This document shows positions 6,001 through 51,472 of a stretch of DNA of 64,000 nt, piece by piece. A program made the translations under genes and the position numbers. The notes below the pieces were generated by a model. That model was not told the origin of the DNA, did no database searches, and saw only the letters and a list, made by a program, of their open reading frames with translations. This DNA is from a virus. The stretch spans positions 32,001-96,000 of IMG/VR virus record IMGVR_UViG_3300027749_000040. One strand, given 5' to 3'. The stretch's first letter is position 1. Each line of letters starts with the position of its first letter.

Positions 6001-9000
6001 CTGGATCTAGTGTTTGGGGCACTAAACAATTAGGTAAGTTGTGGTTCAATACAAGTTCTACTAAATTTGTTAACTATCATCAGTATAATGATGTAGTATA
6101 TAATAGCAAATGGTGGGGTCGTGTATTCCCTGGTAGTCAAGTTACAATTTACAGTTGGATTACAAGTGATGTGGTTCCGGCCGAATATACAGCTACCGGT
6201 ACTCCATTGAACTTAACAGATTATGCTATTGAATATGTATTAAATTCAACCGGAGCTATTACCCCTGTATATTTCTACTGGGTAAGAAATACTAATATCA
6301 TCTTCAACCAGATAGGTAAAACATTAAGTGATACTATATGTGAGGCATATATTAGTGCACCACAGGCATCTGGAATCGCTTACTTTGCACCTATACAATC
6401 TAATGTAATGGGTTTGTATAATACAAGTGAGTATGTCAATTCAACTGATACAGTAATGCATATTGGTTTTGCTACTGGTACAAATGATGATGATTCGCAT
6501 AGTATTTACAGTTTGATTCGTTCAAACTATGTAGATGATTTCTTACCCGGATTGCCTGCATTAACAAGTTTACCTCCCCTATCATTATATGATAGAATGT
6601 TAGATAGTATGAGTGGAGTAGATGAATCAGGTGCCATTGTTCCTGATCCATACTTACCAAAACCAGTACAGAGTGGTATATTAGTTCGTCCTCGTCAAGG
6701 CTTCTTCTATTCACGCTTTGGTGCATTAAAGAATTACTTAACACTTGCTAACCAAGAATTAGCACAGATTCCGTTTACAGAAACTCAATCTAGTAAATTT
6801 TTATACACCGTTGGACCTATAAATCCAAGTACAGGATTACCATTCTATGAAACAACTGACTACTGGGAATATATAAACTGGTGGCAACCCGGCTATAATG
6901 ATAATACTAAATCTGCTATGTTAGTAGAATCATATTTTCAATTAGCAACTATTAATGCACAGAATGGATTAATTGTAACTGTTAATAAAAACGGTGCCGG
7001 CTTCCAAGAAACATACAGATATGATAGCACGGTATCTACTTGGGTCCGTATAGGATTACAAAATGGAACAATTCAATTTAAGAGTTCATTGTGGGATTAT
7101 GAAACAGCACGATTAGGGTTTGGTGATAATTTCTTTGACACAACACCATTCGACACATATCCAAGTCAAGAAACACGCTCTATCACTCGATTCTTAAATG
7201 AAGAATTACCGAGTGAAATATTTGCTTTCAGAAATCAAGGATTGATTTTATTGTTTAACTATATAATGAGTGAAACAATAGAGAGTCAAAATTATCTGCC
7301 ATGGTTAAACAAGACATCATTTATTGATGTAGCACACACGATCCGTGAATTACTTCCTTTAGAAGTATTTCAAAGTGATAATCAAGATTTCTTGTCTGGA
7401 TACATCAATGAAATTAAGCCGTATCATGTAGTTGTTAAAGATTTCTTATTCAAGTACACTGGTACAAACTTATGGGCCGGCAATATTACTGACTTTGATT
7501 TACCAGCACAATATAACACAAATTTACAGAAATATATAACACCTGAATTAGTATATGCTAATCCAAGCGGCGACAGTCAATATTTACCAACAGATGCTAT
7601 ATGGCAAGACCCTGCATATACAAATTGGTTTAACAATTACGGCGTGAGTATAACCGGAGTCAATGCTTATCCAATAACTACCTTAGCATCATATTTAACA
7701 TTGAATAGTAATTCAATGGTAGTAGATAACATTTATGGTTTTCCAATTAACGGAACAATTAAGATTTATGATCCCACTGATCCTGAAACAGATTTAAGTA
7801 AAAAAACATTTGAAATAATTGCTTACTCAAGTGTTGACAGAGCATATAGTACATTAAGTGGATTGACTCGCGGAGTTAATGATACACCTGTATCAAATCA
7901 TTTACCCGGTCAACAACTTTACATTGATCTACCTGCAATATTAGTATTAGATGGTGGTCGTGGTTATGCTAACCCTCCTAAAGTTACTGCATATATAGAT
8001 ACATCAATTTATCCAGCACCTAGAACTGAGGCTATTTTGCAACCAGTGATGAATTTGGATCAACTATTACGCATTGATGTTATCAATCCAGGTGATGGCT
8101 ATGTAGTGTTACCGCAAATAATAATTGAACCTAGTTCAGTTATTACATTTGCAAGTTCAGAAGTTGATTTATTAACCAACACTATTGCTATTCAAAATCA
8201 ACTTATACAAACTGGTGATTTGGTTCGTTACTACACCGGTACTGATACGACCGCAATTGGCGGCGTAAAAAATGACCAATACTATTATGTTAATGTCTTA
8301 GAGTCAGTACCTGCATATGTTCTTGCATTATATACTACCTATGCTGATGCATTACAAGATCGTGACAGAGTAGTATTTTTAAGTACAGGTACCGGGGAGA
8401 ACAATAATTTAGCTGTCAGTGCAAGAGCAAGTTGTGTAACTAGTTCTCGCCCTATTCGTGAAAACATAATGACACTACGCTATGACAGAACTACATATAA
8501 TTCTCAAGTTACTGAGTGGACTAAAAATAATTTCTATGGAAGTTTCTACGCTGGCTCGTTTAAAAATACTGAGCAAATTGCAAGCTCTGCACTAAGTTTA
8601 GAATCTTCACAGCCTGCAATTGATACTATTTTGGCAAGTGCTCAGGGAGCAATTTTTGAAATTCAAAATATACGAAATGATGAAGTTGTAAAATGGTCAT
8701 CTAGAACCCGTACGGTTACTAACACAACAACTAGTACTAATTTAATAACAATTACACCTAGTATTGGTGGAACACCTGATGAAGGTTTTGTAGGACCCAC
8801 TACTGGTTTCTATGTAGGCATGCCAATTAAATTTGCAGGGGCAGTATTTGGTGGATTAGCGGATAACACAGTTTATTATATTAAAGAAATAGTAAGTCTA
8901 ACACAATTTAGTATTAGTACCACAGTAGGCGGACTAGTGGTGCCACTATCAACTGCGGTAACTACTGCAGGATTAGACGCAATCATCGGAGAAGTCACAA

Positions 9001-49160: not shown

Positions 49161-50140
49161 AATATCTAATCGTAGAGATGTATATTTCCAAACATTTTGA
49201 AATGTGTGATGAGTTTATACATAAATTAAAAACAGAAGAATATGATGTTTGTATTTTTTATGCACCATCTGAATGGGAATATTGGTTTGTTCATGATTTT
49301 AAAAACTTATGGAATACCATGACAGAAATAATCTATAGTAGAAACAAAAAAATAGAAGTAATTACTGGGGCGGCCAGAGTATTATACGGGGAACCTAAAC
49401 TAGATTATGTCACGGTTCATCCATGGGATACTTATTGGATAACATTAACACATCATAGCCTACAAAATTATGTAAGAGAAACAAAGCTATACACTTACAA
49501 ATACATTTATATGAATAACAATGACCATGCATGGCGTTGTAAACTTATAGATTTGGTAGCTAAGAATAATTTGATTAAGCATGGTGCAGTCTCATGGCAT
49601 AAATTGCGTTATAATTATCCATGGAAATATTTTAAACCTGAAATATTAAAATTAACGGATTCGTTCTCCGGAGATTTTTTTGATATTTTTACACTCCCTG
49701 AAGAATATGATAATTCTTTTATGCAATTGATTAGTGAAACTACTGTCAATGCTCTTTTTATTACGGAAAAAACAGCTATACCACTACTAACATCTAAACC
49801 ATTTTTAGTAGCATCTGTTACTGGTTATCATGCACATTTAAAAAAATTAGGATTTGAGTTATATACTGAAATTTTTGATTATTCATTTGATGATGAAATT
49901 GACGAAGATATAAGATATCAAAAATTACTTAGTAATTTAATTAAAATATGTAATTATTCAAAAGATCAACTAACATCAGCTCACCATCTGATTAAAGAAA
50001 AACTGTTGTTTAATCAAAACAGAGCAATAGAAATTGCAACCAAAAATATTAATAAACCTAGTATTTTAAATAATTTTCCCGAAAAGTTTTGGCATTCCGA
50101 TTCAATGATATATAATAAATATATGTTTATGACTGTATGA
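49157..50140 (+). CDS. Putative glycosyltransferase-like protein (GT-B-like C-terminal half)
   Basis: LISET..FITEKT..KPF..LKKLGF..FDYSFD string resembles the nucleotide-sugar-binding motif of GT10-like enzymes. Confidence 0.45.
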   Translation: MKYLIVEMYISKHFEMCDEFIHKLKTEEYDVCIFYAPSEWEYWFVHDFKNLWNTMTEIIYSRNKKIEVITGAARVLYGEPKLDYVTVHPWDTYWITLTHHSLQNYVRETKLYTYKYIYMNNNDHAWRCKLIDLVAKNNLIKHGAVSWHKLRYNYPWKYFKPEILKLTDSFSGDFFDIFTLPEEYDNSFMQLISETTVNALFITEKTAIPLLTSKPFLVASVTGYHAHLKKLGFELYTEIFDYSFDDEIDEDIRYQKLLSNLIKICNYSKDQLTSAHHLIKEKLLFNQNRAIEIATKNINKPSILNNFPEKFWHSDSMIYNKYMFMTV

Positions 50141-50713
50141 AGTAGACAGAAAAGGATTCAAGACGCGGGGGCAGTGCCCGCCAGGTCCACCATAAGGAAG
50201 TTTAATGAAGATAAGTGAGTTAACATCAGGATACTTGGGACAGATTGCTAAGTTAAATTGGCAACCGGTCAACAAGAGTGTATGGAATTCTATTCAAGAT
50301 GAAGGTCTTGACGAAGAACAAGACACACCCAATCCTGCCGACTGGCTCATGGCGTCATTAAATATTACACCAGATGATGCTCAAGCATTGATGGCATATG
50401 AAGATGATGCAATTGAAGAATTTAATCGTTTTGATATTGCATTGAAGCAACGCTATCCTGGCATGGTAGATTTAATTGATTACGACAACGGTACTGTTAC
50501 TATTGTCAAAGTCAAGTAAGTTTTCTTATGATGGGCCTGACACAGGATCGATTGGGTCACAAGTATTGAAATGGACAGTCCGGCAATGTAGAAGCCGTTA
50601 GGATTGGGGTCTCCCGGTCGCAGACACAAAAAACGTAAATGCAAACGACGAACTTTTTGCCTTAGCGGCCTAAACACCGCTTAGGGGAACTATCCCTCGT
50701 AACAGAAAATAGT
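50131..50713 (+). ncRNA. ssrA: Circularly permuted (two-piece) tmRNA gene, alphaproteobacterial-type; acceptor piece ~50131-50192, coding piece 50533-~50713
   Basis: T-arm GCGGG-GGCAGTG-CCCGC (50165-50181) and CAGGTCC-ACCA (50182-50192) lie upstream of the 5' acceptor strand GGGCCTG (50533-50539), giving 7 bp with G3-U70. Tag frame GCA AAC GAC GAA CTT TTT GCC TTA GCG GCC TAA = ANDELFALAA (50641-50673). Terminal pseudoknot with AACAGAA loop (50701-50707). Inter-piece pairing gactgt/acagtc and gattcaa/ttgggtc. Confidence 0.93.
50205..50519 (+). CDS. 104-aa acidic protein encoded inside the tmRNA intervening segment
   Basis: SD AAGGA (50194-50198) lies just after the tmRNA CCA. The ORF spans the loop of the intervening stem. 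Confidence 0.75.
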   Translation: MKISELTSGYLGQIAKLNWQPVNKSVWNSIQDEGLDEEQDTPNPADWLMASLNITPDDAQALMAYEDDAIEEFNRFDIALKQRYPGMVDLIDYDNGTVTIVKVK

Positions 50714-50738
50714 AATAGGCTCCTAGGAGCCTATTTTT
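50714..50738. terminator. Intrinsic terminator after the tmRNA, between convergent units
   Basis: Perfect palindrome AATAGGCTCCTAGGAGCCTATT followed by a T run. Confidence 0.8.
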
Positions 50739-51162
50739 ATGGTGTACATGGACCTGTAACAAATCCACCAGCATCTGGTCTACAAGTTGTAGGCAACGGT
50801 GTGCAAGGGCCAACAATAAACCCGTCCCTACAGTAGTTGATTACAGGTTGTGTTATAACGCTGGGTCCAATTACTACGGGGGGAGTCACAATGACTGTTG
50901 GGCCTACTACTGGTCCTGTTACAAATGTCACAGTGGGTGGTGTAGGCCCAACAACTACTGGGCTGGGAACAGTGCCACTGGGTCCAACTACAAACTGCGG
51001 GGCAGTGGGTGCTGGGCCAGGGCCAACCACAAACGGTGGAGGGATGTCAGCAAGTGACTGTGCTGATAATTTTACTATTTGTGGTTGTGGTGTATCTGTT
51101 GCAGTGCCTACACCGCAGGCAGTTAATGCTGTTACTAATAACAGTGATGCAATTTTTCTCAT
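50737..51162 (-). CDS. Pro/Gly/Val/Thr-rich lipoprotein with 8 xVxGP-type repeats (141 aa)
   Basis: Probable start MRKIASLLLVTALTAC (lipobox LTAC) with SD AAGGAA. Four C-terminal Cys. Only clear minus-strand gene. TAAATA on the minus strand at 51260-51265. Confidence 0.75.
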   Translation of the reverse strand: MRKIASLLLVTALTACGVGTATDTPQPQIVKLSAQSLADIPPPFVVGPGPAPTAPQFVVGPSGTVPSPVVVGPTPPTVTFVTGPVVGPTVIVTPPVVIGPSVITQPVINYCRDGFIVGPCTPLPTTCRPDAGGFVTGPCTP

Positions 51163-51472
51163 GGTAATTTCCTTGGTTAGGAAACTTCTTAAGAAAAAGC
51201 TCTCTAAGCACAACTTAGAATTTGGGAACTCTGTCCTAATATTTTTTAAGTCTCAGGGATATTTATCGTTTATATTTTTGATATTAATTTAATTTTAATT
51301 AATTACCAATAGAAATAACCGCACTTTAAAGAATTTTTTACCTTATACACTTACTTATTGCGTAACTAGTGTGTATACTTTACAGCATGAACTATTTTAT
51401 TTAAACAGTATTTTGTTTACTAAATATAAGTCTAGCCTGATGAGTCAGGCTTATTTTTTAAAAGGAAATTAA

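Follow-up and report, generated by a model that had tools for sequence, protein, structure and literature searches.

The split tmRNA gene and its nested reading frame

The DNA analysed here, called the window below, is a stretch of 64,000 nucleotides that corresponds to bases 32001-96000 of the 174-kb IMG/VR virus record IMGVR_UViG_3300027749_000040, estimated to be about 50% complete, and its carrier is a giant freshwater phage with a split gene for tmRNA, the RNA that rescues ribosomes. The Rfam model RF04321 matches positions 50131-50673 on the plus strand with 99.8 bits against a cut-off of 47, covering model positions 1-213, and RF01849 also matches the same tmRNA with 55 against a cut-off of 50. 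The parts of the gene lie in permuted order: the T arm, the 3′ acceptor strand and the CCA are found upstream of the 5′ acceptor strand and the tag frame. The acceptor piece (50131-50192, +), delimited by RF04321, contains the T arm (50165-50181), the acceptor 3′ strand CAGGUCC (50182-50188), the discriminator A73 (A50189) and the encoded CCA (50190-50192), all on the plus strand and read from the sequence. The coding piece (50533-50713, +), placed by Rfam alignment and translation, begins with the acceptor 5′ strand GGGCCUG (50533-50539, +), whose first base G50533 is G1, and carries the tag reading frame (50641-50673, +), which starts at the alanine resume codon, reads ANDELFALAA, and thus ends in ALAA and a stop. 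All 68 homologues keep the alanine identity pair G3.U70 (G50535.U50186 in the window). The RF04321 match leaves about 340 nt unaligned from the CCA to the 5′ acceptor strand.

Upstream of the gene, a promoter-like TTGGCA-16-TATAAT (50089-50116, +), a match to consensus only at 11 of 12 positions, predicts a start near 50123-50125, just ahead of the start of the Rfam model match at 50131. Downstream stands an intrinsic-terminator-like hairpin with a T run (50714-50740, +), made of a 9-bp stem and a 4-nt loop (the hairpin itself spanning 50714-50735) followed by TTTAT, and these two signals frame a predicted transcription unit of about 615 nt. Another promoter-like sequence, TTGTCA-18-TATGAT at 50503-50532, was considered as an internal promoter of the coding piece and rejected, because a start 6-8 nt downstream would hit the acceptor strand and position -5 is not conserved as A. 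An intron-form tmRNA was likewise rejected: the insert follows the CCA and leaves the T-loop (50170-50176) uninterrupted, and in the window Intron_gpI has no match at the Rfam gathering score. ARAGORN, run on the window, called no tmRNA at this locus; it misses most of the relatives too (L003, L033, L065, L244 and others, several of them with short spacers), which RF04321 finds. When the tmRNA region was compared with the genomes of cultured phages by BLASTN, nothing matched. The 174-kb record, about half of the genome, yielded neither SmpB nor RNase III, a result that says nothing on the acting enzymes.

The tag itself (window 50641-50673, compared with L141 and L200) is close to the ANDERFALAA of one-piece tmRNAs in Polynucleobacter and Acidovorax (Burkholderiales), and relatives of the phage carry ANDEQFALAA; this likeness hints at a Burkholderiales host, though the scaffold is of the alpha type. 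The opposite strand carries, directly downstream of the tmRNA, a 158-codon ORF (50737-51213, -) with a lipoprotein-like signal LLVTALTACG and then a repetitive body rich in Pro, Val, Gly and Thr, for which no Pfam or PHROG match was found.

The spacer of 340 nt is filled by a 104-codon frame on the plus strand (50205-50519), identified by its ORF, its homologues and dN/dS, and encoding a phage protein without known function. When the spacer is shuffled, an ORF of this length arises in just 3 of 20000 cases. Its homologues form 36 clusters with 48-94% identity, nearly all of about 104 aa and with 27 invariant columns, and comparison with a nested copy in L003 (93% identity) gives a dN/dS of 0.12. 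The frame is a genuine gene under purifying selection, the cargo of the tmRNA gene. An AlphaFold model of the protein has a pLDDT of 92.7 and a pTM of 0.83; neither Pfam nor PHROGs gave a match, Foldseek found no PDB entry with an E below 0.17, and the single BFVD match is an uncharacterised myovirus protein (TM 0.89). Homologues with about 60% identity occur in other phages as free-standing operon genes, set between genes for Fe-SOD/HNH and for Fe-S biogenesis, and there no tmRNA is close by. In L244 a copy of 77% identity lies inside a tmRNA whose T arm differs and whose acceptor stem, CCGGUCC/GGGCCGG, covaries; the Shine-Dalgarno (SD) sequence of this copy again lies in the stem and its frame ends at a TGA opposite the CCA. 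A 93%-identical copy (L252) sits within yet another tmRNA backbone. In L255-L261 the 104-aa domain forms the N-terminal or an internal part of larger phage proteins of 238 to more than 660 aa. In the database protein P0013 a translated T arm has been added falsely at the N-terminus, and gene callers may in the same manner turn tmRNA sequence into false N-terminal extensions elsewhere.

A covarying helix closes the spacer

The preliminary description had proposed that the acceptor stem continues for 16 more positions into the spacer, and the sequence bears this out. The acceptor stem is a 7-bp helix of CAGGTCC (50182-50188) with GGGCCTG (50533-50539), and in register with it the strand ACCATAAGGAAGTTTA (50189-50204, +; supported by sequence, covariation and pair probabilities), which holds the CCA and the SD, pairs with TAAGTTTTCTTATGAT (50517-50532, +; supported by sequence and covariation), which holds the TAA stop codon (50517-50519). 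The 3′ strand ends at U(-1), immediately before the predicted RNase P-type cleavage site. Read outward from the acceptor stem, the extension runs as one Watson-Crick pair, one mismatch, six Watson-Crick pairs, one G-U pair, two Watson-Crick pairs, two G-U pairs and three Watson-Crick pairs, that is, 12 Watson-Crick pairs, three G-U pairs (G50197.U50524, G50200.U50521 and U50201.G50520) and one C-A mismatch (C50190/A50531). The SD of the nested ORF, AAGGA (50195-50199, +; from the sequence), occupies helix positions 7-11. As also proposed, the helix ends at the ATG (50205), the TAA lies inside it, and the ORF fills the loop.

We searched viral contigs with a 31-nt acceptor pattern, which is present in at least 119 of them; the matches listed include 70 unique genes with enough flanking sequence, giving 65 distinct helices and 68 distinct sequences that were aligned with MAFFT. 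Among the matches listed, an in-register and ungapped extension is found in all 70 unique genes, with spacers of 28-382 nt. Over the 68 distinct homologues 95.6% of the cells are paired, against 84.8 ± 0.5% in shuffles, and compensatory cells number 182 against 46 ± 6. By pair counting, 11 pairs, all within the extension, change on both sides, and none of 500 shuffles reaches the observed values; registers slid against each other pair at only 36-48%. The helix is not a chance pairing. The suggestion that it bridges a large insert gains support from this covariation, which holds at all spacer lengths from 28 to 382 nt.

Position by position, the 65 distinct helices show where the stem begins and ends. 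Position 1 (A73-U) is paired in 97%, position 3 (C75) pairs with G in 69%, and position 4 (A76-U) is paired in all; positions 5-14 are canonical in 82-100% with up to six pair types each, positions 15 and 16 in 75% and 68%, and from position 17 onward pairing falls to a background of 33-48%. The conserved length therefore agrees with the 16 positions first described. Position 2 (C74) is never paired and forms C-A in 62 of 65 helices. The CCA had been described as buried by the helix, and it does lie within it; since C74 is never paired, however, the CCA is held in a helix with a conserved mismatch and is not fully buried. The mismatch (50190/50531 in the window), invariant in 62 of 65 amid a covarying stem, may be a processing determinant.

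We computed the energetics with the nearest-neighbour model of ViennaRNA, which ignores proteins, kinetics and tertiary structure. When 50125-50740 is folded, the minimum free energy structure forms the acceptor stem and the extension (z = -4.0). In this sequence the proximal 10 pairs have probabilities of at least 0.79, and the distal six (50199-50204) are marginal at 0.00-0.32 since a partner internal to the ORF outcompetes them; when the body of the ORF is held unpaired, all 16 positions form (0.84-1.0). The 7 + 16 stacked positions, with the conserved C-A mismatch, amount to a duplex of -24.4 kcal/mol. A stack of about 23 positions has a length compatible with the substrates of RNase III.

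The helix is not special to the 104-aa ORF, as it also closes non-coding spacers in the phages. Several of these (L016:466-549, L062:4740-4843 and L058:1299-1404) fold as tRNA-like multi-branch structures, in which T-arm-like hairpins (GGUUCGAAUCC) stack straight on the extension helix as they would on an acceptor stem (L062, z = -3.9). ARAGORN finds no tRNA inside the L016 spacer, where Rfam clan competition may hide nested tRNA matches.

Bacterial genes carry the extension as well. A looser acceptor pattern applied to bacterial contigs gave almost only standard one-piece tmRNAs and was set aside for an RF01849 search of 151 Pseudomonadota genomes, which yielded 30 high-scoring genes of the alphaproteobacterial type with spacers of 22-57 nt in the sample. 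In about 16 of the 26 that could be parsed, with pair strings read by eye, the spacer continues the acceptor stem in register, and the rest form hairpins at an offset. This makes the extension a general feature of permuted tmRNA precursors and not an adaptation to this ORF, despite the Rfam consensus, which draws the spacer as an unpaired loop. Processing of the two-piece precursor is probably carried out by RNase P and a tRNase Z-type activity (PMC3985003).

A recurring slot for small genes

Coding spacers are found in 21 of the 70 unique genes (34 of 110 instances) among the matches listed, with spacer lengths of 76-382 nt, and their cargos amount to about 16 peptides of 20-122 aa that are not related to one another, several of them hydrophobic. 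One pair of cargos, L030/L047, matches Pfam DUF2061 (73-76 bits) and has a dN/dS of 0.10. The layout of the signals recurs throughout. The SD lies within the 5′ strand in 21 of 21, and the start codon falls at helix positions 14-22 in 20 of 21, the remaining one (L024) starting at positions 11-13. Stops lie inside the 3′ strand in 17 of 21: the last base of the stop is at -2 in 13, where it belongs to the conserved TGA of the TGAU that directly precedes G1, opposite the CCA, and at -13 to -15 in four, including the window. The other four ORFs run beyond G1. Two cargo families (L118/L114 and L106/L071) stay in frame across G1 into the tRNA-like domain and stop 26-68 nt beyond it, and they would become non-stop messages once RNase P cuts. 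Coding stems are weaker than non-coding ones, with a median of -10.1 against -13.9 kcal/mol (Mann-Whitney p = 1.4e-4, for sequences that are phylogenetically related), and have more G-U pairs.

The cargos and the backbones are mixed. A given cargo can sit in backbones that differ in T-loop and D-region (L252 and the window; L071 and L106; 76-93% amino-acid identity), and one tmRNA backbone carries many different cargos, a pattern which fits cassette exchange at the conserved flanks of the stem. The contig L099 (reverse strand) presents a particular arrangement: an orphan acceptor piece with a GGCAGTG T-loop, ending at about plus-strand coordinate 9526, carries an SD-ATG and a 60-codon ORF for a membrane peptide, then two genes of about 228 codons follow, and next comes a complete permuted tmRNA (7262-7651) with another T-loop type and its own 38-codon cargo. 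This looks like a remnant of recombination. The 2080-nt spacer that the pairing search reported for L099 is an artefact, composed of the orphan piece, the three genes and the complete tmRNA, and was dropped from the counts.

Translation, maturation and known systems

According to the folding model, access to the SD depends on how much of the molecule is present. Averaged over 50194-50200, the probability of being unpaired is 0.63-0.67 for nascent transcripts that end before 50400 and about 0.49 for those reaching up to 50525; it drops to 0.17 once the 3′ strand has been added, as in the full precursor. In the RNA excised as 50193-50532 it is predicted to rise again to 0.565, with the AUG staying paired there (0.02), and the residual duplex of 12 positions has -5.0 kcal/mol against -24.4 kcal/mol for the acceptor stem with its extension. 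It had been proposed that the SD is free only before the 3′ strand is transcribed or once the helix is opened. The first half of this holds in silico, with the SD free before the 3′ strand and masked afterwards; the model also reopens it after excision (0.57), which makes translation activated by processing an equally good reading.

The footprint of a ribosome is about 30 nt. A ribosome that starts at 50205 would extend over part of the acceptor 3′ strand as well, and one terminating in the 3′ strand of the extension would reach G1. When a ribosome was mimicked by holding 50193-50220 open, the probability of the acceptor stem fell from about 1.0 to 0.05, and with 50505-50532 held open it fell to 0.26. 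This collapse of the acceptor stem in the folding model supports the role in tRNA-like folding across the insert that the preliminary description proposed.

We consider it likely that the helix is the closing stem of the spacer in a phage two-piece tmRNA precursor, that its loop is used as an expression slot, and that translation and maturation exclude one another. A single transcript of about 615 nt would begin at the promoter-like site near 50116 and finish at the terminator (50735), and the 16-position stem would stack on the 7-bp acceptor stem and align the two pieces (CCA at 50192, G50533) across the 340-nt insert. The stem would further mark the segment for host enzymes of the tRNA type: RNase P would cut at G50533, and an endo- or exonuclease would shorten the 3′ end as far as the CCA. 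In the phage lineage, the loop of this stem would have been turned into an expression slot for small protein genes, the cargo having its SD in the 5′ strand, a start codon where the stem ends distally and a stop within the 3′ strand. While closed, the stem would mask the SD; and because SD, start and stop are placed in or at the stem, a ribosome could neither initiate nor terminate without opening it, so that cargo translation and tRNA-like folding would be exclusive on any one molecule, as follows from the geometry together with the model. Since the stem covers both the ribosome-binding site and the stop codon, protein making and RNA maturing probably compete. The cargo could be translated co-transcriptionally, and again from the excised spacer. 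The enzymes named for processing, the sequence of steps and a regulatory effect, if any, are inferences. The structural and processing role of the stem is well supported, and a role as regulatory switch is plausible, given the SD accessibility and the collapse of the acceptor stem in the folding models.

Within this overall picture a kinetic switch, translation activated by processing, and a by-product of compaction carry comparable weight. The switch, in its full form, would be a true toggle in a modular slot, where each precursor either matures or serves as the mRNA of its cargo. The first ribosome would load co-transcriptionally, translation would then sustain itself because every termination in the 3′ strand would free the SD for the following ribosome, and when the flux of ribosomes drops the stem would snap shut and commit the RNA to processing by RNase P; we rate this as rather unlikely in that strict form. 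If it were true, the cargos that run past G1 would be non-stop messages after cleavage, tagged by the very tmRNA from which they came. Conversely, the stem might silence the cargo in the precursor, and the excised spacer might be the real messenger. RNase P with 3′ trimming, or RNase III cutting in the 23-position coaxial helix, would remove the GC-rich acceptor anchor, the residual AU/GU stem would melt, and cargo expression would follow maturation of the tmRNA with no competition between them. The predicted rise in SD accessibility upon excision, the drop in duplex energy and a stack of a length compatible with RNase III all argue for this sequence of events; against it, the excised RNA would end 1 nt beyond the stop in 13 relatives and be stop-less in four, and such RNAs are poor templates and themselves substrates of trans-translation, and the AUG remains paired in the excised RNA of the model. 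On balance we regard it as possible and doubtful.

The arrangement might also have no regulatory meaning. The stem would then be a generic hairpin for processing and folding into which recombination inserted genes, compactness would have pushed SD and stop into the stem, and the cargo would be translated at whatever low level the stem permits. That the stem is unchanged in non-coding spacers and in bacteria speaks for such a by-product, as does the exchange of cargos among backbones expected of cassettes; overlap with the signals of neighbours is common among phage genes, and the weaker coding stems could reflect an AT-rich SD and coding constraints in a comparison of related sequences. Yet every one of the 21 coding spacers, with about 16 unrelated cargos, holds its SD in the stem and 20 start at the stem end, none places its own signals in the free loop despite a length that is unconstrained (76-382 nt), and the coding stems are significantly weaker, as if tuned, so this account too we hold only tentatively. 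Far less probable is that the region is now a plain mRNA for the 104-aa protein and the helix the leftover of a decayed tmRNA. The silence of ARAGORN at this locus and the lack of SmpB in a record of about half the genome would be expected of a relic, but every hallmark of a tmRNA is intact, the acceptor piece is identical in more than 100 contigs, some with short non-coding spacers, the tag frame is open and host-like, the stem covaries, and ARAGORN misses many short-spacer relatives as well.

The spacers of tmRNA genes have so far been treated as disposable, and Rfam annotates no structure in them. A conserved, covarying stem is generic to permuted tmRNA, and in aquatic phages the slot inside it takes up many small genes, unrelated to each other, that have their translation signals in the stem itself. 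This offers a natural and compact system in which the maturation of a stable RNA and the function of a messenger are combined on one molecule, and their coupling is directly testable.

Several known systems share part of this design. The intervening sequences of 23S rRNA in Leptospira and Coxiella are inserts closed by a stem that can carry a small S23p ORF, and they are excised without religation, leaving the RNA fragmented and functional. As here, a stem-closed insert with room for a small ORF interrupts the gene of a stable RNA, but there the rRNA is cut by RNase III and one ORF family is involved, whereas the tmRNA holds a swappable slot; an SD and a stop embedded in the stem are, to our knowledge, not a described feature of those sequences. 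Phage helices that mask an SD, or messages activated by RNase III, are familiar from the control of MS2 replicase and lysis, the early mRNAs of T7 and the lambda N leader. They act as gates opened by the passage of a ribosome or by processing, similar to the candidate gate described here; those helices, however, sit in mRNAs, while this one belongs to the precursor of a stable RNA, whose folding and processing it also serves.

Two-piece tmRNAs of phages are already known (PMC9004378). The OM43 phage Melnitz and pelagiphages likewise carry a permuted ssrA of the alphaproteobacterial type in an aquatic phage, these being aquatic myophages; the report on them describes a glutamine riboswitch at the 3′ domain and neither a spacer gene nor a closing stem (PMC9004378). 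In a large survey of tmRNAs, only a tRNA-Ala gene and a repetitive element are mentioned within permuted spacers, and homing-endonuclease genes are reported in group I introns of the T-loop (PMC11915505). Like the cargo here, these are extra genetic material in a part of the tmRNA gene that is missing from the mature RNA, but neither the tRNA gene nor the repeat encodes a protein, and the endonuclease genes sit in self-splicing introns of the T-loop and not in a spacer after the CCA (PMC11915505). Our literature search found no paper on protein genes in tmRNA spacers. The two-piece tmRNA of the alphaproteobacterial type itself (RF01849/RF04321) has the same order of acceptor piece, CCA, spacer, 5′ acceptor strand and coding piece and in about 16 of 26 sampled genes has the same in-register extension of the acceptor stem enclosing the CCA; its spacers are 22-57 nt long and non-coding, whereas the phage spacer spans 340 nt and holds a complete gene with its SD and its stop in the stem.
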